A stretch of DNA of 64,000 bases from Escherichia coli (lineage in GTDB: Bacteria; Pseudomonadota; Gammaproteobacteria; Enterobacterales; Enterobacteriaceae), in the NCBI RefSeq assembly GCF_024502345.1, contig NZ_JALDNN010000001.1; one strand, written 5' to 3'. A program made the translations under genes and the position numbers. Positions 25,324-45,620 of this stretch are shown in pieces. Each line of letters begins with the position of its first letter. Positions within the stretch are counted from its first letter, which is position 1. Below the pieces are notes generated by a model. It had not been told where the DNA came from. It searched no databases and saw only the letters and a program-made list of their open reading frames with translations.

Positions 25324-27012
25324 TTACAAATAGAGATAGTTCAGCGGTTCTCCTGTTTTCCCTAAAAGAAGAGCGCTACGCCCAGGAATATTGATATTTA
25401 GAGTTCCGCCTCTAAGCATAAATGCTTTACCAGGGGGGATAATTTTTCGGGTATTATTAATAATAATGTTAACGCTATTACTCCCCATGTTTTTATATTT
25501 TCCAGGTTGCAATTTGTTAGGCCAGGCACCTTCAACTTCTTCGTTTCCTTTATTTATTATAACTAGTCCATCATGAGGAGAGTGATTAATGTTCACCGAA
25601 TCCCCACGACTAAAGGCCAGAACGTTTTTAGTTGCAAATACACCCTCAAATGCGCTCCATATTCCTGCTTTATCTATATATAATGCGTGGAATTCATTGT
25701 AGAGCTGCTGATAGGTAGAGCAACCTTTATTAAGCCACGCCTCACCGCCGACACGCGTCGACCCATCATAATTTTTAATTTCAGTCGTTGATTTTAATAC
25801 TTGGCCATCCCAGTAAACTAAAGGCCTGCTGAACGGGAGAGCGGCCATATATGCCATTGCTAATTGTTCATCTTGTTGATGGTTAAATAGAAAGTCATTG
25901 AAAAGATTGCCATTGTTAGGAAAAACGTGGTTAATGTTAATCAATATCCGTCTTTTTGATGGGATGCTTGAGATTGTTGAACCCGGTTTTGATGCAAGGG
26001 TTTGGAGATCGCCACCAAATGAAAAAGCTTTTATCGTCTTCATGAGCAATGAAAAATCAATGGCGCTTAAATCATCTCTTTCATAAAGCAGCGATGACAT
26101 TTGTTGTTCATCCAACTGACAAGTTACCAGATATTCCATGTAATTCATAACGGCTTTTTCATGATATTTTGGGTTAAATAAGTTAGTATTGTGTAATCGC
26201 TCATTATAATTTTTAAGCGGTGGGGTTATTGATCTTTCTATTTGTTCATGTTTTGAGTGTTTTGCCGCATCATAACGTAAACCTCGTACGCCATATTTTC
26301 GCATTTCACGAACGTATTGATTTTGCAGCATAATAACCTGGTCACTTTTGGGGGTTGTTTTAGGCATTCCATTTAAACGCTTTTCTTTTAATGCATGGAG
26401 GTTTTCCCATTCATCCTTAGAAATATTATCTTTACTTGCTTCGAAGTCTTTTGCAGTGAGATGTATATCTTCTGGATGGATTTGTTTACGTTCTTTTGTT
26501 ACTGGATCTATAGTAAATGGAATCAAAACCTGACCTTGCCAATAGCCAGGGATACCACCTTCTATATCTTTACTGATCTTCGCTCGTATATCAGCAGAGG
26601 GATAATCCAGGTCATTTTTACCACTACCCCCGATTCCCATAAAGTTAAAGGTATAATCAGGAATGATATCGATACCAAATTTTTTAGCATCTTTAACCAA
26701 TGCGATAAAATCCTGCAAATCTCCCATTGGATTATGGATGGTACAAAGATCTTCGGGTTGATAAGCGTGAAACCAGTAACCTTTTTCTTCTTCGGGAGTT
26801 TCTGGTCCGTCGGCGCGGAAAGTTGTCACTGGAGGGATTTGTATATACCCATAATGGCAACGTGCAAACTCAGACATATTTTCCCTGATTTGCTGGTAGG
26901 TGGCATTAAAAGCATGAAGAATCGCTTCGCCAGGTTTTTTGGGGGTGATGATTTCACATTGTGATTTCTGAACAGCAGTAAGGGATTTACGCTCAAGTGT
27001 TTGCCGTAGATG
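25324..27012 (-). pseudogene. ygaQ: YgaQ-like glycoside-hydrolase-family protein, N-terminally truncated by IS3
   Basis: 517 aa ORF (25324-26877) with no upstream partner; coding region abuts IS3 left end at 27013. Confidence 0.7.
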
Positions 27013-27068
27013 TGATCTTACCCAGCAATAGTGGACACGCGGCTAAGTGAGTAAACTCTCAGTCAGAG

Positions 27069-27377
27069 GTGACTCACATGACAAAAACAGTATCAACCAG
27101 TAAAAAACCCCGTAAACAGCATTCGCCTGAATTTCGCAGTGAAGCCCTGAAGCTTGCTGAACGCATCGGTGTTACTGCCGCAGCCCGTGAACTCAGCCTG
27201 TATGAATCACAGCTCTACAACTGGCGCAGTAAACAGCAAAATCAGCAGACGTCTTCTGAACGTGAACTGGAGATGTCTACCGAGATTGCACGTCTCAAAC
27301 GCCAGCTGGCAGAACGGGATGAAGAGCTGGCTATCCTCCAAAAGGCCGCGACATACTTCGCGAAGCGCCTGAAATGA
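27069..27377 (+). CDS. insE: IS3 transposase OrfA (InsE)
   Basis: ...[53 protein letters not shown]...; probable true start at the second Met. Confidence 0.9.
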
Positions 27378-28240
27378 AGTATGTCTTTATTGAAAAACAT
27401 CAGGCTGAGTTCAGCATCAAAGCAATGTGCCGCGTGCTCCGGGTGGCCCGCAGCGGCTGGTATACGTGGTGTCAGCGGCGGACAAGGATAAGCACGCGTC
27501 AGCAGTTCCGCCAACACTGCGACAGCGTTGTCCTCGCGGCTTTTACCCGGTCAAAACAGCGTTACGGTGCCCCACGCCTGACGGATGAACTGCGTGCTCA
27601 GGGTTACCCCTTTAACGTAAAAACCGTGGCGGCAAGCCTGCGCCGTCAGGGACTGAGGGCAAAGGCCTCCCGGAAGTTCAGCCCGGTCAGCTACCGCGCA
27701 CACGGCCTGCCTGTGTCAGAAAATCTGTTGGAGCAGGATTTTTACGCCAGTGGCCCGAACCAGAAGTGGGCAGGAGACATCACGTACTTACGTACAGATG
27801 AAGGCTGGCTGTATCTGGCAGTGGTCATTGACCTGTGGTCACGTGCCGTTATTGGCTGGTCAATGTCGCCACGCATGACGGCGCAACTGGCCTGCGATGC
27901 CCTGCAGATGGCGCTGTGGCGGCGTAAGAGGCCCCGGAACGTTATCGTTCACACGGACCGTGGAGGCCAGTACTGTTCAGCAGATTATCAGGCGCAACTG
28001 AAGCGGCATAATCTGCGTGGAAGTATGAGCGCAAAAGGTTGCTGCTACGATAATGCCTGCGTGGAAAGCTTCTTTCATTCGCTGAAAGTGGAATGTATCC
28101 ATGGAGAACACTTTATCAGCCGGGAAATAATGCGGGCAACGGTGTTTAATTATATCGAATGTGATTACAATCGGTGGCGGCGGCACAGTTGGTGTGGCGG
28201 CCTCAGTCCGGAACAATTTGAAAACCAGAACCTCGCTTAG
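27374..28240 (+). CDS. insF: IS3 transposase OrfB (InsF), DDE
   Basis: 288 aa [35 protein letters not shown]... Confidence 0.9.
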
Positions 28241-28324
28241 GCCTGTGTCCATATTACGTGGGTAGGATCATAATGCTTTGGTTGCTGGCGTATCTGACAG
28301 CTTCTTCGGCGTGAAGGTCGTTGT

Positions 28325-29381
28325 GGCTTTGTTGAATAAATCAGATTTCGGGTAAGTCTCCCCCGTAGCGGGTTGTGTTTTCAGGCAATACGCACGCTTT
28401 CAGGCATACCTGCTTTCGTCATTTTGTTCAGCGCTCGTACCAGGGCCATAGCCTCTGCAACCTGACCATCGTAGTCACGCAGTGTCAGTGAACCCCCGAA
28501 CAGCTGTTTTACCCGGTACATCGCCGTTTCCGCTATCGAGCGACGGTTGTAATCTGTTGTCCATTTCCACCGCGCATTACTCCCGGTCATTCGCTGATTA
28601 GCCACTGCACGGTTACGGTCTGCATATTCACCGGGCCAGTAACCCGCACCTTTTCGGGGAGGGATAAGCGCGCTGATTTTCTTACGCCGCAGTTCATCGT
28701 GACATAGCCGGGTATCGTAAGCGCCATCGGCGGCGGCTGACCTGATTTTCCGGTGGGTTTGCCGGATTAACCCGGGGAAGGCCTCTGAGTCCGTAACGTT
28801 GTTCAGCGACAGGTCAGCGCAGATGATTTCATGTGTTTTACTGTCAACGGCGAGATGCAGCTTACGCCAGATACGGCGGCGTTCCTGGCCATGCTTTTTG
28901 ACTTTCCACTCGCCTTCACCGAAGACCTTCAGCCCGGTGGAATCAATTACCAGGTGTGCGATTTCACCCCGGGTGGGCGTTTTGAAACTGACATTAACCG
29001 ACTTTGCCCGCCTGCTGACACAGCTGTAATCCGGGCAGCGTAGCGGAACGTTCATCAGAGAAAAAATGGAATCAATAAAGCCCTGCGCAGCGCGCAGGGT
29101 CAGCCTGAATACGCGTTTAATGACCAGCACAGTCGTGATGGCAAGGTCAGAATAGCGCTGAGGTCTGCCTCGTGAAGAAGGTGTTGCTGACTCATACCAG
29201 GCCTGAATAGCTTCATCATCCAGCCAGAAAGTTATGGAGCCACGGTTGATGAGGGCTTTATTGTAGGTGGGCCAGTTGGTGATTTTGAACTTTTGCTTTG
29301 CCACGGAACGGTCTGCGTTGTCGGGAAGATACGTGATCTGATCCTTCAACTCAGCAAAAGTTCGATTTATTCAACAAAGCC
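28325..29381 (-). mobile_element. IS903-family element, complete (1057 bp)
   Basis: 18-bp terminal inverted repeats GGCTTTGTTGAATAAATC at both ends; flanking 9-mers differ (GGTCGTTGT vs TGTCCCCAT). Confidence 0.93.
28381..29349 (-). CDS. IS903-family DDE transposase
   Basis: 322 aa track ORF; YREK-type signature (YNRRSIAETAMYRVKQ); true start may be an internal GTG. Confidence 0.9.
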   Translation of the reverse strand: MKDQITYLPDNADRSVAKQKFKITNWPTYNKALINRGSITFWLDDEAIQAWYESATPSSRGRPQRYSDLAITTVLVIKRVFRLTLRAAQGFIDSIFSLMNVPLRCPDYSCVSRRAKSVNVSFKTPTRGEIAHLVIDSTGLKVFGEGEWKVKKHGQERRRIWRKLHLAVDSKTHEIICADLSLNNVTDSEAFPGLIRQTHRKIRSAAADGAYDTRLCHDELRRKKISALIPPRKGAGYWPGEYADRNRAVANQRMTGSNARWKWTTDYNRRSIAETAMYRVKQLFGGSLTLRDYDGQVAEAMALVRALNKMTKAGMPESVRIA

Positions 29382-29480
29382 TGTCCCCATTTGTAAATGG
29401 CTATGCTTAGTCCACATAGGTTAATGGTGTGATTATTAATTCTTTAACTAAATCAAGATAGTTAATGCATCATGGGAGAG

Positions 29481-29900
29481 TTATGCGGCAATAACTTTGC
29501 ATTTTTGAGACGAAACATAGTCACTCCACCATTGCATGAGAACCACCCGTTCAGTGAGATACTCTGCACGATTGTAGGCTGCAATTATTTCATCTTTCTT
29601 CGAGTGGGCAAGGGCGGCTTCTAAGACATCAGTCCTAAACTTGCCAGACTCCTCAGCAGCCGTTCTAGCAATGGATCGCATACCGTGAGCTACAAGCTCA
29701 CCTCCGAAACCCATACGGATTATGGCCGCATTAGCTGTTTGTTCATGCATGTGATTGAGTGGAGCTTTGATACTGGGGAACACCCACTCTCTATGCCCGC
29801 TGATGACTTTCATTAAATCCAAAACTCGCAAAGCTTCTTTGCTCAGTGGAACTTTGTGAGGCTTCTTCATTTTCATAAACTCCGCCGGGATGTTCCACAT
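29481..29900 (-). pseudogene. Tyrosine integrase, 3' fragment (C-terminal ~139 aa)
   Basis: Aligns with the C-terminus of the intact integrase at 45621-46862 (...HGMRSIARTAA...ALAHSKKDEIIAAYNRAEYLTERVVLMQWWSDYV); no upstream integrase-coding sequence; AT-rich. Confidence 0.75.
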
Positions 29901-30062
29901 GCCAGTTTCAATATCAATAGCCGCCTTTCGACGGTGTAGTGGGGAGAGTATTGCTTACAAACGTAATGAAATTGTTTGAGTAGCTAGGCTACTGCATAGG
30001 ATTATTTTGTTCTGTTAATATATCCGTTAATATAGATAGATTGATCCAATTGAGTTTAAGGA

Positions 30063-31772
30063 ATGAGTATGTTTCAGATATCAGCTGGAGTGTTCTTTGA
30101 TTTAGATAAAATAGAAAAACACGATGGCGCATTTGTTTTTTATTCAAATGTTGATGTGTCTTTCTCGGTGGAAAACACCTCCCCTCTTTTTAAAGCAAAT
30201 AAAATAAGTCATGATGGTATAAACTGTTATGTGGTAAACTATACTCTCCTGACCGAAAAACCAGAACGAATTGAAGCTGGAGTCGTAGTTAGGGCTGGTG
30301 ATGAGGATTATAGGCAACAATTTATTTTATTATGGGAATTCTATTTTGATTGTGTGGCTAGAGTAGAAAAAGAATCGGTTAAAAAAATATGTGCATTATC
30401 AAATTTTAATAAACATCACTCAAAAATTGCGCTTGAAGTTGCCCCATATTTAGTGGAGATTAACCGAAGAGTTTCATTTGATGATGTCTCTGGGTTTTCT
30501 GCTTTTATTAAAGATGTAGTGAATCTAAATAGATCTGCCTTTAAATCTTTAATGGCAGCGTTAAAAATAATTAGTGATTCAAAAGAATCATTGTCAACCA
30601 ACTTTGACCTGACTTATTCCATGTTAGTCTATGCCTTGGAGTCTTTGTCTCAAAGAAATGATAACTATAAGTCTGATTGGGATGACTACGATCAAAAAAC
30701 CAGAGGTGAATTAGAGTCTGTATTTGAGCATATGCCTGGTGAGGATGTTTGTAAAATTAAATCAATACTTATTGAAGGCAAACAATTCAGATTACAAAAA
30801 AGGTTCAAAGATTTTATACTGAAAAATCTTGAAGAAAATTATTTCAATGAAACAGAGAGATATCCAATCCGCTATAGCTTCCTTAGTAGAGCTTTAGATA
30901 ATTTATACAAAATCAGGTCTTCTTTTGTCCATGAGCTTAAGCCACTTGATGCAATGATCTCGAAAGCCTACAATCCTGTTGGTGATTGTCTGGTTCTTTT
31001 TGGCGAACCTCACTTCAGTTACTCTGGATTGCTTCGACTTCTTCGCCATGTGATAATAAATTTTTGCCGTAAAAACTACAGTCAAAAAAGAGAGTATGTT
31101 AATTGGGTGATGGAAACATCGGGTGTAATGGTTGCAGAGATATCTGCACAATATTGGCTCTGGAATGCAGACGGATTTACAGCTAAAAGTATAGCGAAGT
31201 GGTTTAGTGAATACCTAAATATGTTAAATTTAGGCGAAGTCACTGATTTGCAGTCTATCATGGACAAAATTGAGATAATCTATGACCAATCCAAAAAAGA
31301 ATATAAAAATGGGTTGTTGTATTTTTATTTCTTATATAACTTAATGCATAATGGAAATAAGGGTGAATGGCTTGAGTTTGCGAACAAGCGAAGTTCTATA
31401 CTTGTTTGTGATATATATTGGTATTCATGCTCTCCATATTTATATAAATCATTTACTAATGTTTCAAATGGTATTGCTGATATAAAAACATTGAGAAACT
31501 TTTTGTCTTGTTTTAACGAATATGATAAAAATAAATTTAAGCCAAATCGTTTAAATCTCCCTGCAATGACCGAAGTAATTATGTTGGCTTGCGCAGCAAA
31601 TTCATTCTTCAGAATTGGAATGTATCAAGACTATGTTTTAATGGGCAATAGAGCGATGAGAGAAATTGCTTCAGTAAAAGATGTATTTTATTATATAAAA
31701 GAACGATTAAGTAATTCACAACTTATTGAATTGGACGAGTGCTTGAGATTGTATAGAAAAAAAGGGGGCTAA
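30063..31772 (+). CDS. Hypothetical protein, 569 aa, AT-rich, no family recognised
   Basis: Single long ORF with strong AT bias; GAGT-containing RBS-like sequence before the ATG; bracketed by integrase 3' remnants and inverted IS903 copies. Confidence 0.75.
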   Translation: MSMFQISAGVFFDLDKIEKHDGAFVFYSNVDVSFSVENTSPLFKANKISHDGINCYVVNYTLLTEKPERIEAGVVVRAGDEDYRQQFILLWEFYFDCVARVEKESVKKICALSNFNKHHSKIALEVAPYLVEINRRVSFDDVSGFSAFIKDVVNLNRSAFKSLMAALKIISDSKESLSTNFDLTYSMLVYALESLSQRNDNYKSDWDDYDQKTRGELESVFEHMPGEDVCKIKSILIEGKQFRLQKRFKDFILKNLEENYFNETERYPIRYSFLSRALDNLYKIRSSFVHELKPLDAMISKAYNPVGDCLVLFGEPHFSYSGLLRLLRHVIINFCRKNYSQKREYVNWVMETSGVMVAEISAQYWLWNADGFTAKSIAKWFSEYLNMLNLGEVTDLQSIMDKIEIIYDQSKKEYKNGLLYFYFLYNLMHNGNKGEWLEFANKRSSILVCDIYWYSCSPYLYKSFTNVSNGIADIKTLRNFLSCFNEYDKNKFKPNRLNLPAMTEVIMLACAANSFFRIGMYQDYVLMGNRAMREIASVKDVFYYIKERLSNSQLIELDECLRLYRKKGG

Positions 31773-31932
31773 CCCCTTTTATTTTTAACGTATTCTCCCC
31801 ACCAATCCATCAATTCAATTCGCTGCACGAGATAAGTAGAACGATTGTATGCTTTTCTAACTTCATTTTTATCACTGTGGGCTAAGGCAGACTCGATAAC
31901 ATCAGGATTTAATCCAGCTTCATTCATGGCTG
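31769..31932 (-). pseudogene. Tyrosine integrase, 3' remnant (~50 codons), truncated by IS903
   Basis: Reverse strand translates ...AMNEAGLNPDVIESALAHSDKNEVRKAYNRSTYLVQRIELMDWWGEYVKNKRG*; abuts IS903 end at 31933. Confidence 0.55.
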
Positions 31933-32673
31933 GGCTTTGTTGAATAAATCGAACTTTTGCTGAGTTGAAGGATCAGATCACGTATCTTCCCGACAACGCA
32001 GACCGTTCCGTGGCAAAGCAAAAGTTCAAAATCACCAACTGGCCCACCTACAATAAAGCCCTCATCAACCGTGGCTCCATAACTTTCTGGCTGGATGATG
32101 AAGCTATTCAGGCCTGGTATGAGTCAGCAACACCTTCTTCACGAGGCAGACCTCAGCGCTATTCTGACCTTGCCATCACGACTGTGCTGGTCATTAAACG
32201 CGTATTCAGGCTGACCCTGCGCGCTGCGCAGGGCTTTATTGATTCCATTTTTTCTCTGATGAACGTTCCGCTACGCTGCCCGGATTACAGCTGTGTCAGC
32301 AGGCGGGCAAAGTCGGTTAATGTCAGTTTCAAAACGCCCACCCGGGGTGAAATCGCACACCTGGTAATTGATTCCACCGGGCTGAAGGTCTTCGGTGAAG
32401 GCGAGTGGAAAGTCAAAAAGCATGGCCAGGAACGCCGCCGTATCTGGCGTAAGCTGCATCTCGCCGTTGACAGTAAAACACATGAAATCATCTGCGCTGA
32501 CCTGTCGCTGAACAACGTTACGGACTCAGAGGCCTTCCCCGGGTTAATCCGGCAAACCCACCGGAAAATCAGGTCAGCCGCCGCCGATGGCGCTTACGAT
32601 ACCCGGCTATGTCACGATGAACTGCGGCGTAAGAAAATCAGCGCGCTTATCCCTCCCCGAAAAGGTGCGGGTT
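31933..32673 (+). mobile_element. IS903-family element, truncated second copy (~741 bp), inverted relative to copy 1
   Basis: Starts with GGCTTTGTTGAATAAATCGAACTTTTGCTGAG; identical to copy 1 up to ...AAAGGTGCGGGTT, then diverges into the yfjP-like fragment. Confidence 0.9.
31965..32673 (+). pseudogene. IS903-family transposase, C-terminally truncated
   Basis: First ~236 codons identical to the copy-1 transposase; track ORF continues in unrelated out-of-frame sequence. Confidence 0.8.
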
Positions 32674-33094
32674 GCATCACACCGTTCCAGAACTGCTCGT
32701 CCACCGACAGCGCACGGTCATCAGCTTTGATGACCCACAGCACCAGGTCAAGCTCTGGCAGCATACGCCGGTACAGGGCGCGGTATTCATGGTCCCGTTG
32801 TCCGTTCTCTCCCACGCCCGGTAAATCAACAATCACCAGACTGTGACGACCACTGCGCAGCCGGAAGCGCAGTATGTCGCGGGTGCAGGCGTTCACATCA
32901 CTGACGGCGGAGACTTCCCCCCGAAAGAGTTCGTTACAGAGCGACGACTTACCGGCACCACTCTTGCCCATGATGCCAATCACCGGCTCGTAGTGGGTCA
33001 GATTCTGAATACGTTCAAGAATAAGCTGGCGAAGCGTATCGGGAAGCGACGCCAGCGGTTTTTCCAGGGCCTGAAGGCCATCAGTTTTATTCAT
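32674..33094 (-). pseudogene. yfjP: YfjP/YkfA/YeeP-family GTPase, N-terminal fragment
   Basis: MNKTDGLQALEKPLASLPDTLRQLILERIQNLTHYEPVIGIMGKSGAGKSSLCNELF... (P-loop GKSGAGKS); cut short at the IS903 junction. Confidence 0.75.
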
Positions 33095-33726
33095 ACAGGG
33101 TTCTCAGCGTGAAAAACAAAAATCCCCGCGCTCCGGTCAGGGAGGCGGGGGATTCACGGAGATAATATCTATCTGAATTTATTTAGAATATAAGCAGGCT
33201 CATGTAACTGTAGCAGTGTCAACTTTACATCACAGCTCATGTTGGCTGGTGGTATTTTGCCAATAGTAGACATTTACGCCTAGGTTTAGATATCGAAATT
33301 AGTACACCAATATAGATACAGCAAAGAGGGAACTGATTTGTCTGCGCGAGACTAGAACCGTTGCCCCCTGTGGTTCGATGGATTGCAGGAAAATCATTTC
33401 CGGTGCTGAAGAGAGCCTCCGATACAACCTGAGAATATTTTAAGAACATCAAAATGAATGACGTAATTTACTCAAAGGCGATTGCCTAATATGTCATGAT
33501 ATTAGTAGCATTTAATTGCGTGAAAGTTTGTATATTCTTTTGAATTTATCTCAAAGCTAAAACCTCGTCAAAAATACACAAAAGGGTTTTGAGAAACAAG
33601 AGCCTGATGCTGAATCTGCTACAGAGCTGGGTTCTGTTCTGTTAAACTTGCGGTTAAAAATTTCCAAGAAAACCTAGGATATGACATGAGTTCACTGCAC
33701 ACCAGTAGTAGCAGCAGGGCGGTCAC

Positions 33727-36540
33727 ATGCCAATGGAGAGCTGTACGCAAATGAACGCCGTAGAAATTGAACAAGCCATCACGGATCTTGCAGAGCAACC
33801 CTTTGATCCTATAGAGTTTCCTTATGCTTTTCTTGAAGCCTTTGGTAACAAGGAAACGACTGTCAAACGCTTGCGCGCCGGTGCATCAAACAAATCCGAC
33901 TTGGGCGGTGTTCTCCAGAGCAATAATATTCACATTCTGACCTGCGAAGCAGGGACTGTGACTCAGATGTTGGCCGCGCTCAAGGCTAGCCCTGCGACAA
34001 CTAAAGCCAAGGCGAAGTTCATCCTGGCTACAGATGGCAAAGATTTCGAAGCTGAAGACCTCGTTAGCGGTCAGACTGTCGCTTGCGCCTTTAAAGACTT
34101 CCCAGATCACTTCGGCTTTTTCTTGCCATTAGCAGGCATTAGCACAGTTCGTCAGATTTGTGAGAACTCCTTTGACATTCGGGCCACTAGCCGGCTGAAT
34201 CGTCTGTATGTCGAGTTGTTGAAAGATAACCCTACCTGGGGGACGGCGGAGCGACGTCATGACATGAACAAATTCATGACTCGGCTGATCTTTTGTTTTT
34301 TCGCTGAGGATACTGACATTTTCGTGGGTAAGGGACGCTTTACTGAAACCGTTGCGCAGATGAGTACAAGAGATTCGTCGAATACGCATGAAGTTATCGC
34401 TACCTTGTTTCGTGCCATGAACACCAGTAACAAAGATAGAGCCGCCGCTGGCATCCCGCGCTGGGCCAATGAGTTTCCTTATGTCAACGGACGCTTGTTC
34501 TCTGGGAGTAATGATGTACCACTGTTCAGTAAGATTGCACGGTCTTATTTGCTCCATGTGGGTAGCCTTGACTGGACCAAGATTAATCCGGATATCTTTG
34601 GCTCGATGATTCAGGCAATTGCCGAAGACGAAGAACGCGGAGAGCTGGGGATGCATTACACCAGCGTACCCAACATCTTAAAAGTTTTGAATCCACTATT
34701 TCTGGACGACCTGCGCGCAAAGCTGGATGAGGCGGGTGACAATCCGCGTATGTTGCTTAACCTGCGTAAGCGCATTTCCCACATCCGTGTGTTCGACCCA
34801 GCGTGCGGTTCTGGTAACTTTTTGGTTATCGCGTACAAGGAAATGCGTGCCATTGAGGCCGAAATCAACAAGCGGCGTAATGAGCCAGATCGCGCCTCGG
34901 ATATCCCACTTACCAACTTTCGCGGGATTGAACTAAGAGATTTCCCGGCAGAGATCGCCCGCCTTGCGCTTGTTATCGCTGAGTACCAATGTGATGTACT
35001 GTACCGTGGGCTGCGGTTGGCCTTGGCTGAGCTTCTTCCGTTACGCAACGAAAATTGGATTACCTGTGGCAATGCACTACGGCTCGACTGGTTAAGAATT
35101 TGCCCGCCGACAGGAACAGGTGTGAAATTACATGGCGATGACTTGTTTGGATCTCCGCTTGATCAGGCAGAGATCGACTTTGAGAATGAAGGCGGAGAGA
35201 CATACATTTGCGGTAACCCACCATACCTTGGTTCAAAGTGGCAGACGGATGAACATAAAGCTGATCTTGGCACAATCTTTTCTGGTCGCGTGAAAAATTG
35301 GAAATCGCTCGATTATGTTGCTGGCTGGTTCCTGAAAGCCGCTGACTATGGTAGCCAGACAAGTTCCCAGGCTGCTTTTGTTGCCACTAATTCAATCAGC
35401 CAAGGGCAGCAAGTGTCGATTCTGTGGCCGGAAATATTCAAGGCAGGACAAGAGATTAGTTTCGCTTACACGAGCTTTAAGTGGTCGAACCTCGCTACTC
35501 ACAACGCCGGGGTCACAGTTGTTATCATCGGAATTTCTAACTGTGTAGGAAAGTCGCGACGCCTCTTTTCGGCTGGAGGAGACAATGGTGCGACGACGTG
35601 TCGTGAGGTGGAGCGCATCAACGCCTATTTGATCGCTGGCCCTAACATCATTGTGGAGGGGGACAGTTGTCCAGCCGACAGTCTTGCAACGATGCAGTTC
35701 GGTAACCACCCGTACTATGGTGCATCACTGATCTTTTCGAGATCTGAAGCACAGCAGATGATGTCTGTCGATCCGCGTACGGCGCGTTTTATTCGCCCAC
35801 TATATGGCTCCCAAGAGTTCATTTCCGCTGTGCCACGAGCCTGTCTATGGATTAACGACGATGAGGCTGACGAAGCGGGGACGATTCCTCTGATAGCTGA
35901 GCGTATGAGCGCCGTAGCAAGTGCTAGACGTGCAAAAAAACAAGACAAGGCAGCCCAGAAACTGGCTAAGACTCCATATCGCTTTCGCGACCAGCAGACA
36001 TCTACGAATCATATTCTTGTGGTTCCTCGAGTCAGTTCAGAGAACCGTCCTTGCTTGCCGGTTGGATTACTTGACTCTGACTCTATCGTTCAAGATCAAG
36101 CATTCGCCCTTTACGACGCTCCTCTCTGGAACCTCGCCATCATAGCGAGTCGCCTGCATCTAGTTTGGATCGCCACGGTTTGTGGAAAGTTAGAGACACG
36201 CTACCGCTATTCAAACACCCTCGGCTGGAATACTTTCCCGCTCCCAACACTCACTGAGAAAAATAAGGCAGACCTCACGCGCTGTGCAGAGGATATTCTT
36301 CTGACTAGGGAGCATCACTTCCCTGCAACCATTGCAGACCTTTATGACCCCGAGAAGATGCCAGACGACCTGCGTATTGTGCACGAGCGTAATGACGAAG
36401 TGCTTGAGCGTATTTACATTGGGCGCCGCTTTAAGAATGACACAGAGCGGCTTGAGAAGCTGTTTGACCTTTATACTAAGATGGCCGCTTCAACTGCATC
36501 GGGCAAAAGCAATAAACGTAAAGTGGGAACCAATGCATGA
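33727..36540 (+). CDS. MmeI/PglX-like gamma-class N6-adenine DNA methyltransferase, 937 aa; no recognisable N-terminal PD-ExK motif
   Basis: Motif X-like HYTS, motif I VFDPACGSGNFLV, motif IV ICGNPPYLG; other blocks (RLIFCFFAEDTDIF, FPYVNGRLF, AFVATNSISQGQQVSILWP, LETRYRYSNTLGWNTFP) resemble the MmeI/PglX family from memory. Start could be Met-9 (33751). Confidence 0.85.
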   Translation: MPMESCTQMNAVEIEQAITDLAEQPFDPIEFPYAFLEAFGNKETTVKRLRAGASNKSDLGGVLQSNNIHILTCEAGTVTQMLAALKASPATTKAKAKFILATDGKDFEAEDLVSGQTVACAFKDFPDHFGFFLPLAGISTVRQICENSFDIRATSRLNRLYVELLKDNPTWGTAERRHDMNKFMTRLIFCFFAEDTDIFVGKGRFTETVAQMSTRDSSNTHEVIATLFRAMNTSNKDRAAAGIPRWANEFPYVNGRLFSGSNDVPLFSKIARSYLLHVGSLDWTKINPDIFGSMIQAIAEDEERGELGMHYTSVPNILKVLNPLFLDDLRAKLDEAGDNPRMLLNLRKRISHIRVFDPACGSGNFLVIAYKEMRAIEAEINKRRNEPDRASDIPLTNFRGIELRDFPAEIARLALVIAEYQCDVLYRGLRLALAELLPLRNENWITCGNALRLDWLRICPPTGTGVKLHGDDLFGSPLDQAEIDFENEGGETYICGNPPYLGSKWQTDEHKADLGTIFSGRVKNWKSLDYVAGWFLKAADYGSQTSSQAAFVATNSISQGQQVSILWPEIFKAGQEISFAYTSFKWSNLATHNAGVTVVIIGISNCVGKSRRLFSAGGDNGATTCREVERINAYLIAGPNIIVEGDSCPADSLATMQFGNHPYYGASLIFSRSEAQQMMSVDPRTARFIRPLYGSQEFISAVPRACLWINDDEADEAGTIPLIAERMSAVASARRAKKQDKAAQKLAKTPYRFRDQQTSTNHILVVPRVSSENRPCLPVGLLDSDSIVQDQAFALYDAPLWNLAIIASRLHLVWIATVCGKLETRYRYSNTLGWNTFPLPTLTEKNKADLTRCAEDILLTREHHFPATIADLYDPEKMPDDLRIVHERNDEVLERIYIGRRFKNDTERLEKLFDLYTKMAASTASGKSNKRKVGTNA

Positions 36541-38582
36541 GCAACAAGATTAGATCTGTACCGTCAGTTTCTGTTACCTACTCACGCAACGGAGCATCGA
36601 CCAAGGCTAATTCTCTTGGGATGCGTCCTATGCAAGAAAGGGCTTATGAGAAGCGCGGAGAACAATATCTTCTCATAAAGTCGCCGCCCGCCTCTGGCAA
36701 GAGTCGTGCGCTGATGTTCGTCGCACTCGATAAACTCGCAAACCAGGGGATCAAACAGGCAATCATTGTCGTGCCGGAAAAATCTATCGGCGCGAGCTTC
36801 AACGATGAACCGCTATCGCAGTTTGGATTCTGGGCTGATTGGCATGTTGAACCTAAGTGGAATCTGTGCAACGCCCCCGGTAACGACAACGGCGGCAAGG
36901 TAAAATCTTTCGGCTCTTTTCTTGAAAGTAGCGACAAGGTGCTTGTTTGTACACACGCAACCTTTCGCTTCGCGGTCGATGCCTACGGTGTAGAGGCGTT
37001 TGACGATCGCCTGATCGCCGTCGATGAATTTCACCATGTGTCCGCTAACCCGGATAACAAGCTTGGTCAGCATCTGGGACAGTTCATTGAGCGTGACAAG
37101 ACGCACATCGTGGCCATGACCGGCTCCTACTTCCGGGGAGATGCGGAAGCCGTTTTGGCTCCTCAGGATGAGTCTAGGTTCGATACCGTCACCTACACCT
37201 ACTACGAACAACTCAACGGTTACGAATACCTCAAACAGCTTGATATCGGATACTTCTTTTATAGTGGATCATACATTGATGACATCCTCAATGTCCTCGA
37301 TCCTGACAAGAAAACGATTATCCATATTCCCAACGTCAATTCGCGCGAGAGTACGAAGGATAAAATTAAGGAGGTGGAGCACATTCTGAGCGAGCTTGGC
37401 GATTGGCAAGGTGCGGATCCTACGACTGGTTTTCAGCTAGTCAAGCGCCCCGATGGCCATGTGTTGCGTATTGCTGACCTGGTGGACCCAGCCAGTCAAG
37501 GCAAGATTCAGGAAAGCCTCCGAGCTCCAGAAATGAAGACAGACCGTGACTATGTAGACATCATTATTGCACTTGGTATGGCGAAGGAAGGTTTCGACTG
37601 GATCTGGTGCGAACATGCGCTGACTGTTGGCTACCGTGCCAGCCTGACTGAGATCGTGCAGATTATCGGTCGCGCTACTCGCGACGCGCCGGGTAAAACC
37701 CGCGCGAGATTTACTAACTTGATCGCCGAGCCCGACGCTGTAGAGGGCGCAGTAACTGAGGCAGTCAACGATACCTTGAAAGCTATCGCGGCGAGCCTGT
37801 TGATGGAACAGGTACTGGCTCCGCGCTTCGAGTTCAAGCCCAAGAATCCTGAAATCGGTCCGACTCCAGGCTTTGATTATGGTGATGGAGGATATGACCC
37901 GGATAGCTGCAATTTTGGTGTTAATGAGCAGACAGGGACGTATCAAATCGAGATTAAGGGACTTGCCGAGCCTAGGAGCAAAGAGGCGGCACGTATCTGC
38001 CAGGAAGATTTAAACGAAGTGATCGCGGCCTTTGTGCAGGATAAGCCCGCCATCGAACGAGGCCTGTTCGATGAAGAGCTGATCCCTGAAGAGTTAACAC
38101 AGGTTCGTATGGGTAAGATCATCAAAGAAAAGTATCCTGAACTTGATGCTGAAGATCAGGAGGCTGTACGTCAGCATGCTATCGCCGCCCTTAACCTCAC
38201 GCAGCAGGCCAAGCGTCTTGCTACCGGTGAAAACGATGGGACGCTCAATACTGCTCTTATTGACGGAGTGCGTCGCTTTGCAATGGATGTGCGCGATTTA
38301 GACATAGACCTTATCGACCGCATCAATCCCTTTGGTGAAGCCTACGCTATCCTTGCTAAGACGATGAGTGAAGACAGTTTGAAGCAGGTCGCGGCGGCCA
38401 TCTCGGCCAAGCGTACTTCGATCACGCCTGAAGATGCCAAGGTGATCGCCAAGCGTGCCGCTGAATTCAAACGTGAACGTGGGCGCCTCCCATCGTTAAC
38501 TTCGCTGGATGCTTGGGAAAAACACCTTGCTGAAGGTGCAGCCGCGTTTATGCGTTTTAGGGCGGAGGGACGTTATGAGTAA
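36537..38582 (+). CDS. SF2 DExH-box helicase (ResIII-like), 681 aa, with ~270 aa C-terminal region of unknown function
   Basis: Motif I PPASGKS, motif II AVDEFHHV, motif III MTGS, motif VI QIIGRATRD; ATG overlaps the methyltransferase stop (ATGA). Confidence 0.85.
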   Translation: MSNKIRSVPSVSVTYSRNGASTKANSLGMRPMQERAYEKRGEQYLLIKSPPASGKSRALMFVALDKLANQGIKQAIIVVPEKSIGASFNDEPLSQFGFWADWHVEPKWNLCNAPGNDNGGKVKSFGSFLESSDKVLVCTHATFRFAVDAYGVEAFDDRLIAVDEFHHVSANPDNKLGQHLGQFIERDKTHIVAMTGSYFRGDAEAVLAPQDESRFDTVTYTYYEQLNGYEYLKQLDIGYFFYSGSYIDDILNVLDPDKKTIIHIPNVNSRESTKDKIKEVEHILSELGDWQGADPTTGFQLVKRPDGHVLRIADLVDPASQGKIQESLRAPEMKTDRDYVDIIIALGMAKEGFDWIWCEHALTVGYRASLTEIVQIIGRATRDAPGKTRARFTNLIAEPDAVEGAVTEAVNDTLKAIAASLLMEQVLAPRFEFKPKNPEIGPTPGFDYGDGGYDPDSCNFGVNEQTGTYQIEIKGLAEPRSKEAARICQEDLNEVIAAFVQDKPAIERGLFDEELIPEELTQVRMGKIIKEKYPELDAEDQEAVRQHAIAALNLTQQAKRLATGENDGTLNTALIDGVRRFAMDVRDLDIDLIDRINPFGEAYAILAKTMSEDSLKQVAAAISAKRTSITPEDAKVIAKRAAEFKRERGRLPSLTSLDAWEKHLAEGAAAFMRFRAEGRYE

Positions 38583-39753
38583 TTCTGATTTAGACGATTT
38601 GGCGGCAGAACTTGCTGAATTTGCACCACCGGAGAAGAAAAAAGGACGTCCAGCCAGCGAGGAACGCATCATCGCAGGTTTTGAGGAAATCCAGCGCTTC
38701 GCTGACCAACATGGACGTGCGCCGCAACACGGCGAAGAGCGTGAGATCTTTGAGCGCCTCTATGCAGTGCGGCTCGACCGGCTACGCAGTCTCCCAGACT
38801 GCCGTGCCTTGCTAGAGCCGCTGGATCATCAAGGCTTATTGGCTGGAGGGGGTGATGTAGCGGAGTCAGCGGACGAAATTATCGATATCGATAATTTGGC
38901 TGCCGAACTGACGGATGTTTCCAGCGAGGATGATATCACAGTCTTGCGTCATGTTCGTGCTAGCGCCGAAAAGCGTGCTGTACAAGGGATCGCGGATCGC
39001 AAGCCGTGCGAGGATTTTGATACATTCAAACCGCTATTTGAACAGGTGCGCAGTGATCTAAGTTCAGGGTTAAGAGTGACCCGACCTTTTGGACAGTATG
39101 CAACGATTGAAGTGGGCCATTGGTTCATCCTGGATGGTCAAACGGCTTATGTGGCTGAGGAAGGTGAAGAGTTCGATTCTCCACAGGGGAAGAAAGATGC
39201 TCGGCTGCGTGTCATTTATTCGAATGGTACAGAAAGTAACCTGCTTCGGCTGTCATTAGTTCGTGCTTTGTATAAAGACGAAACAGCACGTCGAATTACC
39301 GATCCAGACATGGGGCCTTTATTCAGCGATGCTCTAGAAGAGAGCGATCTAGAAAGTGGCACCATTTATGTATTGCGTTCGCTATCAGATAACCCTTATG
39401 TGGCCGAACATCGTGATGTTATTCACAAGATTGGTGTGACTGGCGGCAAGGTCGAGACTCGTATTGCTAATGCTGAACACGATTCCACCTATCTGTTGGC
39501 GAAGGTAGAGGTGGTCGCTTCATACAAACTCGCAGGTATCAACCGCACCCGGATGGAAAACCTGTTTCACAGGTTGTTTGCACCCGCAAGGCTTAACATT
39601 ACCATTAACGACCGTTTCGGCCATCCAGTACAGCCCGAGGAATGGTTTCTCGTTCCGTTATTCGTTATCGATGAGGCTGTTGCACGTATTAAGGATGGTA
39701 GCATCATTGGGTATGTTTATGACCCCATGTCTGCGAAACTGGTGAAGGCATAG
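38575..39753 (+). CDS. GIY-YIG-like / T5orf172-like domain protein, ~392 aa (tentative domain call)
   Basis: GGAGG RBS then ATG at 38575 overlapping helicase stop (ATGAGTAA); C-terminal region GTIYVLRS...YVAEHRDVIHKIGVTGGKVETRIAN resembles GIY...YIG-R; acidic N-terminus. Confidence 0.65.
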   Translation: MSNSDLDDLAAELAEFAPPEKKKGRPASEERIIAGFEEIQRFADQHGRAPQHGEEREIFERLYAVRLDRLRSLPDCRALLEPLDHQGLLAGGGDVAESADEIIDIDNLAAELTDVSSEDDITVLRHVRASAEKRAVQGIADRKPCEDFDTFKPLFEQVRSDLSSGLRVTRPFGQYATIEVGHWFILDGQTAYVAEEGEEFDSPQGKKDARLRVIYSNGTESNLLRLSLVRALYKDETARRITDPDMGPLFSDALEESDLESGTIYVLRSLSDNPYVAEHRDVIHKIGVTGGKVETRIANAEHDSTYLLAKVEVVASYKLAGINRTRMENLFHRLFAPARLNITINDRFGHPVQPEEWFLVPLFVIDEAVARIKDGSIIGYVYDPMSAKLVKA

Positions 39754-39868
39754 TGAAGTGACACACTGAATTTGGCCACCTGTTCTGAGGTGAGTATATC
39801 ACCTCAGAACAGCACAGGAATAAAAGATACTGATTTGAATGTACCTATACTTTGCGATGTGAGGATCA

Positions 39869-40660
39869 ATGAATAGTAACCTGACCAAGATATGTTACCG
39901 TGGTGAGACTGGTGAAAGTGATCTAAGAACGTTGATACTTGGTGAGATTCTATATATCTCACTACGAGATGTTTTAATCACGCTGAATAAAGAAAATAGA
40001 GAAATCAACGCTGATTACACAGTAAAATCGATGGCTGGAATAATCAGGGCGCAATTACAGGCTCTTGACCCTGATGAGTATATTACTACAGATGCTGAAA
40101 ATGGTGTTTTTGAAGGTCAGAAAGAGATCTTCGTCACCCAGCCAGGTTTGTATCGAGTCATGTCAAGTGACCGAAGCGCTGCCGGTAAGCGCTTTCAAAA
40201 ATGGTTATTTCATGAAGTCATACCATCATTGACTAAGCATGGTGTATACCCGCCTCCGCCAGAAGCGAAAGGTTCAGCCCTTGCACAAATGGCTGAGATA
40301 CTTGCTCAAAATTCGCGAGCACTTGCTGACGCAATCCATAAACACGAAAAACTGGCCGAAGATGTCTCACAGGTTAAAGGTAAAGTTGCCAACGTTGAAA
40401 GCCGTCTGGAACTGTTAGAATCAGGTCCTTCCACTGTAACTGAAGATATGCATACTCTTGATAGCCGTCTCGCTTATTTGGACATGAGCATGGAAGAAAA
40501 GCATACCACCGAGACATTAGCCTGGTGCGAGAATATTTCTGTTCAAAATAACAGGAAGGTGATTCGCAAGGACTGTAGGGAGAATTCGCTCTTTACAACG
40601 CAGACTATCGACGAAGCAATCGCTATCATGACTGAAAGTGGAAAAATCACACCAAATTGA
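39869..40660 (+). CDS. Bro-N domain protein (phage antirepressor-like), 263 aa
   Basis: ...GLYRVMSSDRSAAGKRFQKWLFHEVIPSLTKHG matches the Bro-N/Ant hallmark (F..W...EV.PSI); coiled-coil-like C-terminal half. Confidence 0.7.
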   Translation: MNSNLTKICYRGETGESDLRTLILGEILYISLRDVLITLNKENREINADYTVKSMAGIIRAQLQALDPDEYITTDAENGVFEGQKEIFVTQPGLYRVMSSDRSAAGKRFQKWLFHEVIPSLTKHGVYPPPPEAKGSALAQMAEILAQNSRALADAIHKHEKLAEDVSQVKGKVANVESRLELLESGPSTVTEDMHTLDSRLAYLDMSMEEKHTTETLAWCENISVQNNRKVIRKDCRENSLFTTQTIDEAIAIMTESGKITPN

Positions 40661-40748
40661 AGATCCTGGGGTTCAGATTATCTGCTGGCTATCTTATTGA
40701 GCTCTGACGTAAAATAGGCCTTCCCACAAAGAGAAGGCCATTGCCGAC

Positions 40749-41375
40749 TTACAGATCGATTTGGCTACAGCCGAAGTTACGGTCTCCTTCACCAAACACT
40801 TTGCTTTCGACTTTGGTGAGGTAATCCAGTCGGGTTAACAGCGCTTGGTAGTTATGCTGGAAGTCAGCATTATTGGTATCCAGCACGTACTTACAGTTGT
40901 CAGGAAAATGGACCAGACCAGGGTGATCATCCAGTTTCAGTCCCAGGGCGCTGTACCACGCTCCCGTAATCATCCCTCTCAGGTTATCGTGCTGATCGTA
41001 ATCCCCGAGGTGGTAGTAAGCGTCTTTGTTGAACAACAGGCAAATGTGGTAGTGGCATTTACCTGACTCAGAATACTCTTTCGCCCATATAATAAATAAA
41101 GGGCAACGGTAGATGCGTTTACCTTCACGCTCCTTACGGGTACGGTCAGCCTCCAGTTTAGCTCTGAGGGAATCACGCATTCGGGATATCACCCCTGGTT
41201 CAAGATTAGGGAAACAGCAGATATTGTCTCCGTTATCGACTATCTTCGGATAATGCAGATCGACACGTACCGCCGTTAACCTGGGGTAACGGTTAGTCAA
41301 ATAACATAATAATTTTTTAATCTTGATCTGATATTCGAGGATATGTACTCCATGAGTACCTTGATATGTTTTCAT
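40749..41375 (-). CDS. YagK/YfjJ-family protein (inovirus Gp2-like)
   Basis: 208 aa ORF with Cys/His-rich stretch (CHYHICLLFNKDAYYH); family assignment from memory of CP4-57/CP4-6 yfjJ/yagK. Confidence 0.6.
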   Translation of the reverse strand: MKTYQGTHGVHILEYQIKIKKLLCYLTNRYPRLTAVRVDLHYPKIVDNGDNICCFPNLEPGVISRMRDSLRAKLEADRTRKEREGKRIYRCPLFIIWAKEYSESGKCHYHICLLFNKDAYYHLGDYDQHDNLRGMITGAWYSALGLKLDDHPGLVHFPDNCKYVLDTNNADFQHNYQALLTRLDYLTKVESKVFGEGDRNFGCSQIDL

Positions 41376-41646
41376 AATATATATCTGTATTTGGTCCTAC
41401 GGTCTATAGCAGACCGTACAGGGATGCCATACAGGCAGGGCTATTCCTGGTCACTGTTGTCGGTATATACTGGTATCAGATCTTAGTACGGATATACTGA
41501 TCTGATTACTACTCTTACTGGTGAATACAGGTAGTAAGAGTACACAATGCCATTATATAATACCTATCCAACATCTAAATTTGAGACGAAGGTAGCCCCA
41601 GCCTGTGATGGCTGTTAAAAAGTTACTCTGCAATTAGCTTCTGGAA

Positions 41647-42216
41647 TTAACCGATGATTCCGTTATTCCAGTGCCGCTTCACAGTCGATAAACTGATACT
41701 CAATTTCTTTGCAATCTCAGCCTGAGTAAATCCACCTTTCTTAAGTATTGTGATATCACGTCGGTATTTGCTTCCCTCCTTTCGTCCTAATTTCTTCTTA
41801 ACATGTCGATATCGGCTTTTAGTTGATTTCAGATTGTGAATGTCAATCGTATCCTGACGAGCAATCAAAAAAGACAAGCAACTTTCAGCAGAAGGCTCTA
41901 TCCTTGAAGCTGGATGGTAGCTGTAGATAAAAATTTCTTTTTGAAGGCAAAAAAATAAAATATTCTGTAAGTCCTCCACAGTTCTGCCAAGACAGCTTAG
42001 ATCTGGAATGACAAGCGTGTCCTGCCGGTTCATTTCATGATGAATCAATTGTCTGAGTAAACGTTGCTCTGAAACAACCTCTTTAATATCTACCTGCTCG
42101 ATCACAACATGTTCAGGTAGAATATTAAATTTTTGGCATATCTCAGCAAGTGAGTGATGATCTGTAATGCTTTCTTGCTGTTCGCTACTGCATATGGTGT
42201 AAAAAAATGAACGCAT
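41647..42216 (-). CDS. Serine recombinase-like protein (resolvase/invertase fold), possibly catalytically altered
   Basis: From internal Met: MRSFFYTICSSEQQ (cf. YARVSTxxQ), LVIPDLSCLGRTVEDL (cf. DRLGR), C-terminal HTH GFTQAEIAKKLSISLSTVKRH. Track ORF extends to 42345. Confidence 0.6.
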   Translation of the reverse strand: MRSFFYTICSSEQQESITDHHSLAEICQKFNILPEHVVIEQVDIKEVVSEQRLLRQLIHHEMNRQDTLVIPDLSCLGRTVEDLQNILFFCLQKEIFIYSYHPASRIEPSAESCLSFLIARQDTIDIHNLKSTKSRYRHVKKKLGRKEGSKYRRDITILKKGGFTQAEIAKKLSISLSTVKRHWNNGIIG

Positions 42217-42371
42217 CTGATGCACTCCGGTGTCATAAATTATTCTTTGATACCTGAACAATGTCATTTTGTATAAAAAATAACCAAAAATAGAGCGTGA
42301 TTGCCAGCGATACTTTGAGTGGTAAAGTAGTATTTTACCTCTCATAATTGTTTGTCCTTCTTTGTTACCTC

Positions 42372-43085
42372 TTAGGTTCTGCTCTCCTGTGAGTATGGGT
42401 TTATAATGATGTCATCCGGTGCATTAACACGGTTGGAAACATTTGTTTTACGGATCACTGGCAGCATAACCACCATCTCATTGACATGGTAAATATCAAT
42501 CCAACAAACAACCGGATAAGGCATAACAATCCCCTTTCTTCTAAGAACTTCATTTATCCCGAATATAATTAATTGGGATGTTGACAAGAGTAGAGTCTGC
42601 CCGACATCAAAGTAATAATCCTCAAAGGTTGTTCTATGAATAAGAATAATGTTTGAATATCCCAAGACACTTTGATGCTTTACATTAAAATGTCGTTGAT
42701 TGTAAATGTAAATGGCTTTTTCCATATCGTAATTTTCCCTCAGCGAGGATAGCCTTTCACGTATAACTGTTTTTTCATCTTTCCCCATGAATTCATCATT
42801 AGCGTTCAGTTTAAAGTAATCTGTAATTGGGATTTTTAATGGACTCATGATGTTCGTTTTCCAGATTAACGAACAGTATTCTTCCAGAGTCACTTCTTTT
42901 TCACCTCGATTTCGAATAATTCTTTCATTTATAGTGAATCTTAGTAGATCGTTTTTTAGCTCCTTTATTAGCCATTGATAGCGAAGACATTGCTCGAATA
43001 TATGTACCGTCAACGCCACAGAGTCTGATATGACTGAGGAAAGAGATTTATTATTCATCCTGGCATAATGCTCAAGAGTTTCCAT
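42372..43085 (-). CDS. Hypothetical protein, 237 aa, AT-rich
   Basis: Long ORF with no recognised motifs; between resolvase-like gene and alpA. Confidence 0.55.
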   Translation of the reverse strand: METLEHYARMNNKSLSSVISDSVALTVHIFEQCLRYQWLIKELKNDLLRFTINERIIRNRGEKEVTLEEYCSLIWKTNIMSPLKIPITDYFKLNANDEFMGKDEKTVIRERLSSLRENYDMEKAIYIYNQRHFNVKHQSVLGYSNIILIHRTTFEDYYFDVGQTLLLSTSQLIIFGINEVLRRKGIVMPYPVVCWIDIYHVNEMVVMLPVIRKTNVSNRVNAPDDIIINPYSQESRT

Positions 43086-43245
43086 CTCAGATTCATTTTT
43101 GTGCGTAAAAGTGTATTTTTTATTGGAAATGTTTTTTACTCCTTATAATTAACATTGCTATTAATTAATCCTGTTTGTAAAGGAGAAGTTTATTAATAAG
43201 TAAAAGTCCGCCTGCATCAAGACACGATGAAAATGTCTTCCTTTC

Positions 43246-43458
43246 TTACTCTATTGCCCGGGTTCGTTGTAAAATCCATTCGTCTATTTCAGCCTCTATC
43301 CAGCCGACAGATTGCAGCCCCAGACGACGTTGTTTCGGGAACGTTGGGTCATAGCGTGGCGATTTCGGATTGATCCAGTCATAGATTGTTGAACGTGACA
43401 AGCCCGTTTTGTCAATTACTGTAGAAAGACGAAGTATTTTAACATTAGATTTGTTCAT
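43246..43458 (-). CDS. alpA: AlpA-family prophage regulatory protein (excisionase-like HTH)
   Basis: 70 aa: MNKSNVKILRLSTVIDKTGLSRSTIYDWINPKSPRYDPTFPKQRRLGLQSVGWIEAEIDEWI, characteristic AlpA sequence. Confidence 0.85.
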   Translation of the reverse strand: MNKSNVKILRLSTVIDKTGLSRSTIYDWINPKSPRYDPTFPKQRRLGLQSVGWIEAEIDEWILQRTRAIE

Positions 43459-43649
43459 AGCTGATTACCTCAAATCGAAGTGCTCTGGATGATGTGAGAT
43501 TAGCTTTAAGGCAGCCAATCTAAAATGTATGTGCCAAAAAAACTTTTTTTTACGAACGGGAAATAAATATCCTATTGAAATTTAATGATTTTATTTTTTT
43601 TCTGTCGGGTCCATCAGAACGGTGTGAATTCAGTTACAGCCTTCCGGTC

Positions 43650-44570: not shown

Positions 44571-44784
44571 TGTCATTCCGAATTTACACCACGCCCTAAG
44601 ACTCTACCTTATTTTCTTTGCAAAGCAGGCTGCTTGTGCAAGTTGTACATGTAGTTAACAGGCAGTAAGTATGGCAAACCATTATTTCATGTCTTCACAT
44701 CTGGTTCTTCATTCAGTTAAGTAGTAAAAATGAAAGGGATGTCAGAGCAAGAACAGATGACGTTGTGTAACTGACCAATGAAGG

Positions 44785-45558: not shown

Positions 45559-45587
45559 AACTTCTCATTATTTTTTCCAAAAATAAG

Positions 45588-45612
45588 AACCGCGCCTTTG
45601 AAGGCGCGGATT
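45588..45612 (-). terminator. Probable intrinsic terminator downstream of the integrase gene
   Basis: Hairpin CCGCGCCTT-TGAA-AAGGCGCGG followed (reverse strand) by a T-rich run. Confidence 0.5.
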
Positions 45613-45620
45613 AAGTAGAA

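Follow-up and report, generated by a model that had tools for sequence, protein, structure and literature searches.

The complete IS3 element at positions 27013..28270 of the window (the whole 64,000-nucleotide stretch of Escherichia coli DNA that was analysed) is very probably the scar of a deletion and not a simple insertion; that is, it represents an IS3-bounded deletion junction whose right side is anchored. In fact, one intact IS is present, it has no target duplication, both joints lie exactly at its termini, and the intervening DNA is absent from the 64-kb window.

IS3, its two flanks and the missing DNA

The element (1258 bp, plus strand) starts at 27013 with TGATCTTACCC and ends at 28270 with GGGTAGGATCA. 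It has TGATC...GATCA termini and is equal to K-12 IS3C at 1256 of 1258 bases, with two substitutions at positions 200 and 1214. The terminal inverted repeats are imperfect, 28 of the 40 outer positions being in agreement, and have 5'-TG...CA-3' ends. The first open reading frame, orfA (27078..27377, plus strand, 99 aa), is identical to K-12 InsE, and orfB (27374..28240, plus strand, 288 aa), which overlaps orfA by 4 nt in the -1 frame, shows one amino-acid change with respect to K-12 InsF; both are open, and the element is complete at 1258 bp, as the initial annotation had stated. The orfB product gave 339 bits with the NCBIfam model transpos_IS3 (cutoff 160, E = 3e-101), and the same element is labelled in other RefSeq genomes as 'IS3-like element IS3 family transposase, programmed frameshift'. 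Length, termini, the two ORFs and near-identity to known copies all point to membership of the IS3 family, and frameshifting is predicted from the RefSeq annotation.

A simple IS3 insertion produces a 3-bp (occasionally 4-bp) target duplication, and its flanks are contiguous in uninterrupted genomes. The window copy showed neither feature: no duplication was observed, and its flanks are 2.2 to 12.9 kb apart in reference genomes. The flanking triplets, ATG (27010..27012) and TAA (28271..28273), are unequal, as already noticed from the sequence, and re-inspection at both 3 and 4 bp gave no duplication, the 4-bp flanks being GATG and TAAT. Perfect 3-bp duplications were found in three positive controls, namely K-12 IS3B in yaiT (GAT), K-12 IS3E in gatR (GTC) and the IS3 of EC195 that lies inside IS2 (GCT). 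Since simple IS3 insertions retain a perfect 3-bp duplication, its absence at the window IS3 is informative.

The left end of IS3 abuts ygaQ, a gene of the alpha-amylase family, at nucleotide 1689 of 2253. What is left of ygaQ (25324..27012, minus strand; Pfam Alpha-amylase and Alpha-amylase_C) corresponds to the 3'-terminal 1689 bp of the gene, or 563 of 751 codons with the stop included, and is open from the stop at 25324 up to the IS3 end. Intact ygaQ is 2253 bp long beside glaH in TB06052 and FDAARGOS_943, as well as in K-12, and the remnant is collinear with it; therefore the first 564 bp are gone in the window, in agreement with the N-terminal truncation of ygaQ described initially. The ygaQ promoter is missing too. 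The gabD-lhgO-glaH-ygaQ order is 99.6 to 99.9% identical to that of E. coli FDAARGOS_943, where intact ygaQ is followed by ileY, ypjC/B and ypjA, and the left flank of IS3 is core chromosome. The 5' end of ygaQ was found nowhere within the 64-kb window, and the same is true of ileY and ypjA. In the window, ARAGORN detected ssrA alone (47045..47407) and no tRNA gene.

The right flank has a different origin. Uninterrupted ygaQ reads GTAGATG / TTCTGGATTG at the insertion site, and the window IS3 is followed by TAATGCTTTGG, which is unrelated to the intact site. This sequence belongs to the 54-bp spacer that had been reported between IS3 and IS903 (28271..28324, no strand given; IS903B begins at 28325). 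The 54 bp match TB06052 L001 9218..9272 at 100%, at a site 43 bp downstream of the distal parB gene, and are present at 100% identity in loci L001, L002, L006, L007 and L017. No match to them was obtained in the ygaQ-ileY region of FDAARGOS_943, the closest relative. The possibility, raised by the initial annotation, that the spacer is native ygaQ-adjacent DNA is thus contradicted by its 100% match to the parB side of an island.

The island from which the 54 bp come contains integrase, recombinase, ParB and ParB genes, to which type I R-M is added in fuller copies. Its integrase gene lies directly beside ssrA in LR-64-1, PSJ-12 and EC195. In EC195, which has a fuller copy, the island continues through hsdM-hsdS-hsdR, IS1, an ankyrin gene and IS2::IS3 to ygaQ, and the hsdM-to-parB stretch occurs in 293 genomes. 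No convincing distal repeat was found in fuller copies such as that of EC195. This ParB island is an ssrA-associated island different from the CP4-57-like element that adjoins ssrA in the window.

The two flanks of the window IS3 are contiguous in no reference: the left one ends at L001 position 5013 and the right one starts at 9218. With respect to FT130 and TB06052, the window lacks 2.2 and 2.9 kb of non-IS3 DNA, respectively, and carries a single IS3 instead; with respect to EC195, it lacks L017 4933..17851, a total of 12.9 kb in which the IS elements present there are included. The deletion bounded by IS3 amounts to 2.2 to 12.9 kb, depending on the reference. What was lost at IS3 comprises the first 564 bp of ygaQ, ileY and distal island DNA, with type I R-M in the fuller versions.

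The ileY gene, annotated as tRNA-Ile(CAU) in K-12, is also missing at the equivalent locus in LR-64-1, APEC_AN-25, TUM1887 and PigCaeca_2, and likewise in 357900, STEC383 and EC195. This copy has been repeatedly lost in natural isolates, and ileX, located elsewhere, presumably covers for it.

Other differences from FDAARGOS_943 were observed. This closest core relative (L003 24967..43013) is quite different on the ygaQ-to-ssrA side: it has kept ileY, ypjC/B and ypjA, and its heavy load of IS elements (IS1, IS600, ISSso6, IS66-family and IS2 copies) is Shigella-like. Beside proX, it carries an IS3 with a 4-bp duplication (GTTG) that is absent from the window. Conversely, a 1335-bp insertion within nrdE (window 9218..10552) is absent from FDAARGOS_943; it is about 75% identical to IS2 and is probably another IS3-family element.

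A second deletion at IS903B and the patchwork up to ssrA

The complete IS903B next to the spacer (28325..29381, minus strand, 1057 bp; transposase ORF 28381..29349) has the same sequence, GGCTTTGTTGAATAAATC, at both ends. It gave 357 bits with the NCBIfam model transpos_IS5_2 and is 99.7 to 99.9% identical to copies labelled 'IS903B family' in RefSeq. The length of 1057 bp, the inverted repeats and the single transposase ORF are those expected of the IS903 group of the IS5 family, to which the element can be assigned. IS903B has terminal inverted repeats of roughly 18 bp, and a 9-bp target duplication is expected of its simple insertion; the flanks of this copy are ggtcgttgt and tgtccccat, without such a duplication.

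In TB06052, FT130, LR-64-1, STEC383 and EC195, the 54 bp are followed by parB, parB and a recombinase gene, and then by the integrase gene. IS903B stands exactly in place of L001 9273..12833, a block of 3561 bp that contains parB, parB and the recombinase gene and has no match anywhere in the window. Past IS903B, the window resumes at 29382 with an intergenic stretch, followed by the final 439 bp of the integrase gene. IS903B therefore stands for a further deletion, of 3561 bp, that is independent of the first. The 54 bp are the sliver left between the IS3-bounded and the IS903B-bounded deletions, because IS903B replaces exactly the 3561 bp that follow them in the references. A 12-bp repeat, GACTCAATGTCC, flanks the parB-parB-recombinase block in TB06052 and was discarded as being of a length expected by chance. 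For IS903B, the textbook reading is an adjacent deletion that results from intramolecular replicative transposition, and most likely this copy would have made its own deletion in that way from its left-hand end, with the right-hand flank being kept. Adjacent deletions are common for IS903 (PMC11708052). The IS pile-up with a deletion that the initial annotation had recognised at this edge thus resolves, by comparison with annotated E. coli genomes, into at least two IS-bounded deletions.

A partial IS903B (31933..32673, plus strand; IS positions 317..1057; Pfam DDE_Tnp_1_5) lies 2.55 kb from the complete copy, to which it is 100% identical and with respect to which it is inverted. Its intact end interrupts a P4-type integrase gene, and the truncated one is joined to a GTPase gene via the 4-bp microhomology GGTT. 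The presence of this inverted copy implies a further rearrangement, which a single adjacent deletion does not explain. A duplicative inversion, or an inversion by recombination between the two IS903B copies, predicts the reverse complement of ggtcgttgt to the left of the partial copy. The 9 bp found there are tcatggctg, which is not that sequence, and an inversion between the two copies was therefore rejected. A composite transposon made of the two IS903B copies and the 2.55-kb segment was also considered; it is unlikely, because one end of the segment is island DNA that lies only 3.6 kb away in the references.

The region 27013..32673 consists, in order, of IS3, the 54 bp, the complete IS903B, a 538-bp integrase-gene end, 2.0 kb of P4-like DNA and the partial IS903B. 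The integrase-gene end (29382..29919, minus strand; Pfam Phage_integrase) derives from the ParB island and comprises 99 bp of intergenic DNA and the 3' 439 bp of the gene, whose 5' 791 bp are missing; it matches LR-64-1 L006 10767..11304 at 100%, where the 1230-bp integrase gene adjoins ssrA. The P4-like satellite fragment (29916..31932, plus strand) carries a cargo gene for a 569-aa protein (30063..31772), together with 164 bp from the 3' end of the P4-type integrase gene, and is 99.8% identical to the segment between psu and int that lies beside ssrA in ATCC 8739. The cargo ORF had no Pfam or NCBIfam match, and a weak PADLOC match to Cas13-ApeA (E = 7e-6). The joint between the integrase gene and the P4-like fragment, at 29916..29919, has no IS end and shows the 4-bp microhomology AATA, which points to an illegitimate recombination. 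This junction was found in none of the 5426 complete E. coli genomes surveyed. Both of the joints that lack an IS terminus (n = 2) have a 4-bp microhomology, AATA in one case and GGTT in the other.

The CP4-57-like island (32670..47407, minus strand; intA 45621..46862) ends at ssrA (47045..47407). It contains the truncated GTPase gene, a type IIG R-M-like methyltransferase, a helicase, a GIY-YIG nuclease, BRO-N, yagL/yagM and intA. The stretch 33727..39753, possibly a defence cluster, encodes a 937-aa type IIG restriction-methyltransferase-like protein (PADLOC E = 4e-284), after which come a DEAD/DEAH helicase of 681 aa and a GIY-YIG nuclease of 414 aa.

On the opposite side, the island is cut inside the GTPase gene at 32670, roughly 9 kb short of its end in strain 2013C-4282. 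When the window was searched for a second copy of the ssrA 3' end (attR) or for K-12 psaA, none was found, the sole match being ssrA itself at 47045. An intact island should be bounded by attL and attR, and no direct repeat of the ssrA 3' end is present at the distal boundary; K-12 retains a 14-bp psaA repeat of this 3' end. The loss of the original island boundary and attR, which had been proposed initially as probable, is borne out by these results. On the whole, the ygaQ-ssrA interval is a composite of fragments of three ssrA-associated elements.

For annotation purposes, ygaQ is here a 5'-truncated pseudogene and the local copy of ileY has been lost. What lies between ygaQ and ssrA is debris of three ssrA-associated elements rather than a single prophage whose ends can be defined, so that att-site prediction there is pointless.

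Nested IS3 endpoints and the route to the deletion

The arrangement of the window was found in none of the 5426 complete E. coli genomes, and the same result was obtained for the ygaQ-IS3 junction and for both IS903B junctions. The junction between IS3 and the 54 bp (GGGTAGGATCA / TAATGCTTTGGTTGC) gave, among these 5426 genomes, a 100%, single-piece match in LR-64-1 and APEC_AN-25. In these two strains, the left IS3 end abuts the glaH-ygaQ intergenic region, at a position equivalent to window 25239, and therefore the whole of ygaQ has been lost. LR-64-1 and APEC_AN-25 probably count as one lineage, because their locus structure and protein accessions are identical.

A single complete IS3 without a duplication was observed for 10 of the 11 copies examined at the ygaQ-ssrA locus. 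On the coordinates of TB06052 L001, at least eight left endpoints (3240, 4902, 5013 in the window, 5018 in TUM1887, 5149, 5636, 6293 and about 6454) and at least seven right endpoints (7552, 7713, about 8410, about 9081, 9167, 9218 and 13151) were identified. The right endpoint at about 9081 defines the EC71 class, with at least 11 genomes, and that at 9218 is shared by the window, LR-64-1 and APEC_AN-25. As expected of nested endpoints, the right junction is conserved in LR-64-1 and APEC_AN-25 while the left one varies. The locus is therefore a nested IS3-bounded series on both sides, and the window is one more member of this recurrent pattern.

The IS3 of TUM1887 (L008 6206..7463) is in the opposite orientation and ends 5 bp from the ygaQ junction of the window (GTAGATGTTCTG / IS3); at the other end it meets a truncated integrase gene. 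TUM1887 was considered as sharing the insertion site of the window. This was rejected, because its IS3 has the inverse orientation and ends 5 bp deeper within ygaQ; the two therefore have no junction in common.

From the two other genomes, in which the same right junction (IS3 followed by TAATGC) is combined with a different left junction, we infer that the right one is anchored and the older of the two. In a later step, the left IS3 terminus would have been joined to a target inside ygaQ. The route that we favour, tentatively, is a one-step transposase-mediated adjacent deletion; nearly as likely is a two-step route, in which a second IS3 in the same orientation would have inserted into ygaQ and homologous recombination would have followed. 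Either route requires the IS3 transposase for a ygaQ joint placed precisely at the IS terminus, and has as its product a single intact IS3 whose flanks are unrelated. To speak of an 'adjacent deletion' here goes beyond what is proven, since a second IS3 followed by IS3-IS3 homologous recombination gives the same product. That the TUM1887 IS3 ends only 5 bp from this site suggests a preference of IS3 for this part of ygaQ, which would agree with the one-step and the two-step routes alike.

Deletions beside IS3-family elements are known to be promoted by IEE, the IS-excision enhancer. The usual route of IS3-family elements is copy-out-paste-in, which by itself is no source of adjacent deletions, and this counts against the one-step reading. 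Nevertheless, IS150, an IS3-family element, accounted for 14 adjacent deletions among 83 events in the long-term evolution experiment (PMC11708052), and fused IS3 orfA-orfB gave more adjacent deletions (Sekine 1994, as cited in PMC11708052). The absence of target duplications has been ascribed either to IS-IS recombination or to adjacent deletion (PMC11708052). The rbs deletions beside IS150 are a further precedent, and were explained, like most IS-linked rearrangements of that experiment, by insertion of a second copy followed by homologous recombination (PMC4173774).

The most serious rival, credible if short of probable, is RecA-dependent homologous recombination between two long-standing direct IS3 copies, the first a simple insertion in ygaQ flanked by an ATG duplication, the second located at the island site and flanked by a TAA duplication; the intervening DNA would have been deleted and one hybrid IS3 left. 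In a variant of it, incoming DNA carrying IS3 and the 54 bp would have recombined with a resident ygaQ::IS3. The recombination of two copies predicts the product that was seen, namely one intact IS3 with perfect termini and flanks from different sites. IS3 is found at this locus elsewhere in both orientations (TUM1887, EC195), and the stretch of ygaQ in which the TUM1887 element ends may be a repeated IS3 target. In addition, of the large rearrangements recorded in the long-term evolution experiment, about 70% were due to IS-IS recombination (PMC4173774). On the other hand, two IS3 copies at these positions were present in none of the 5426 genomes, and each of the many endpoints would need a new insertion in the correct orientation. 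The comparison of IS3 copies was of little help as a chimera check, in that the copies differ from the window IS3 at 1-3 positions each, too few to show a chimera; the differing positions include 199/200, 894, 1007, 1132 and 1214. As for the parental states, an IS3 at the 54-bp site with a TAA duplication was not found in the 5426 complete E. coli genomes, nor was ygaQ::IS3 with an ATG duplication. With neither parental state found there, the sequence fits one step as well as two, and the order of events given above is tentative.

A broader form of the one-step reading, which we regard as doubtful, is that a resident IS3 at the ygaQ-ssrA hot spot is a recurrent one-step deletion generator, acting from both ends and in many lineages. 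If true, this would be in-the-wild evidence that a copy-out-paste-in element of the IS3 family routinely makes adjacent deletions, and that islands are eroded, and ileY repeatedly removed, by a resident IS3.

It is very improbable that the structure is an assembly artefact, in which two IS3 copies, and likewise the identical IS903B copies, were mis-joined through the repeat. The region does contain several repeats of at least 1 kb, and the ygaQ-IS3, integrase/P4-like and both IS903B joints are absent from the 5426 complete genomes. However, the IS3-54-bp junction is independently present in two other assemblies, a single IS3 without duplication and with other endpoints occurs at the same locus in at least nine other complete genomes, and the window is contiguous over four IS copies, suggesting a long-read or finished sequence. 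Less probably, the missing DNA may have been moved by translocation or inversion to a distant site beyond the 64-kb window. Finally, a simple IS3 insertion in ygaQ, with the 54 bp being native and the duplication having decayed by point mutation, has nothing in its favour beyond the completeness of IS3 and is refuted by the intact site (GTAGATG / TTCTGGATTG, as compared to TAATGCTTTGG at the right flank of the window IS3) and by the 54 bp, which are parB-near island DNA at 100% identity with no ygaQ-ileY match.

The element is an ordinary IS3, an IS without a duplication is already well known as the mark of a deletion, and this single instance adds no new principle. Mildly notable is the natural nested series of IS3 deletions at the ygaQ-ssrA hot spot, with the repeated loss of ileY. 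The series could be mined for how IS3-family elements cause deletions.

Comparison with known systems

K-12 IS3A to IS3E have the same 1258 bp, termini and imperfect repeats as the window IS3. Like the window copy, K-12 IS3A, IS3C and IS3D have no target duplication, and IS3A and IS3D, as the window copy, adjoin gene remnants. The K-12 copies differ in location and in both flanks; no IS3 is present at ygaQ in K-12, which has kept ileY and a full-length (pseudogene) ygaQ.

The deletions caused by IS150 in the long-term evolution experiment resemble the present series in having a fixed junction on one side and variable endpoints on the other, in the single IS without a duplication that remains, and in their recurrence in independent lineages (PMC4173774; PMC11708052). 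Unlike them, the series of the window occurs in natural isolates, on both sides of the IS, and involves IS3 itself; moreover, what was lost here is island DNA, a tRNA gene and part of ygaQ, and not a catabolic operon.

The complete IS903B shares with known IS903 adjacent deletions one original and one new flank, the lack of a 9-bp duplication and a contiguous missing block, here of 3561 bp. It differs from them in the second, inverted and partial IS903B located 2.55 kb off, and in that the mechanism is here read from the sequence.

As in K-12 CP4-57, an intA-type integrase gene lies beside ssrA, and the cargo is on the ygaQ side of ssrA. The window differs from K-12 CP4-57 in that it contains no repeat of the ssrA 3' end, whether psaA-like or longer, lacks ypjA as well as the distal TA/antirestriction module, and has a composite interval.
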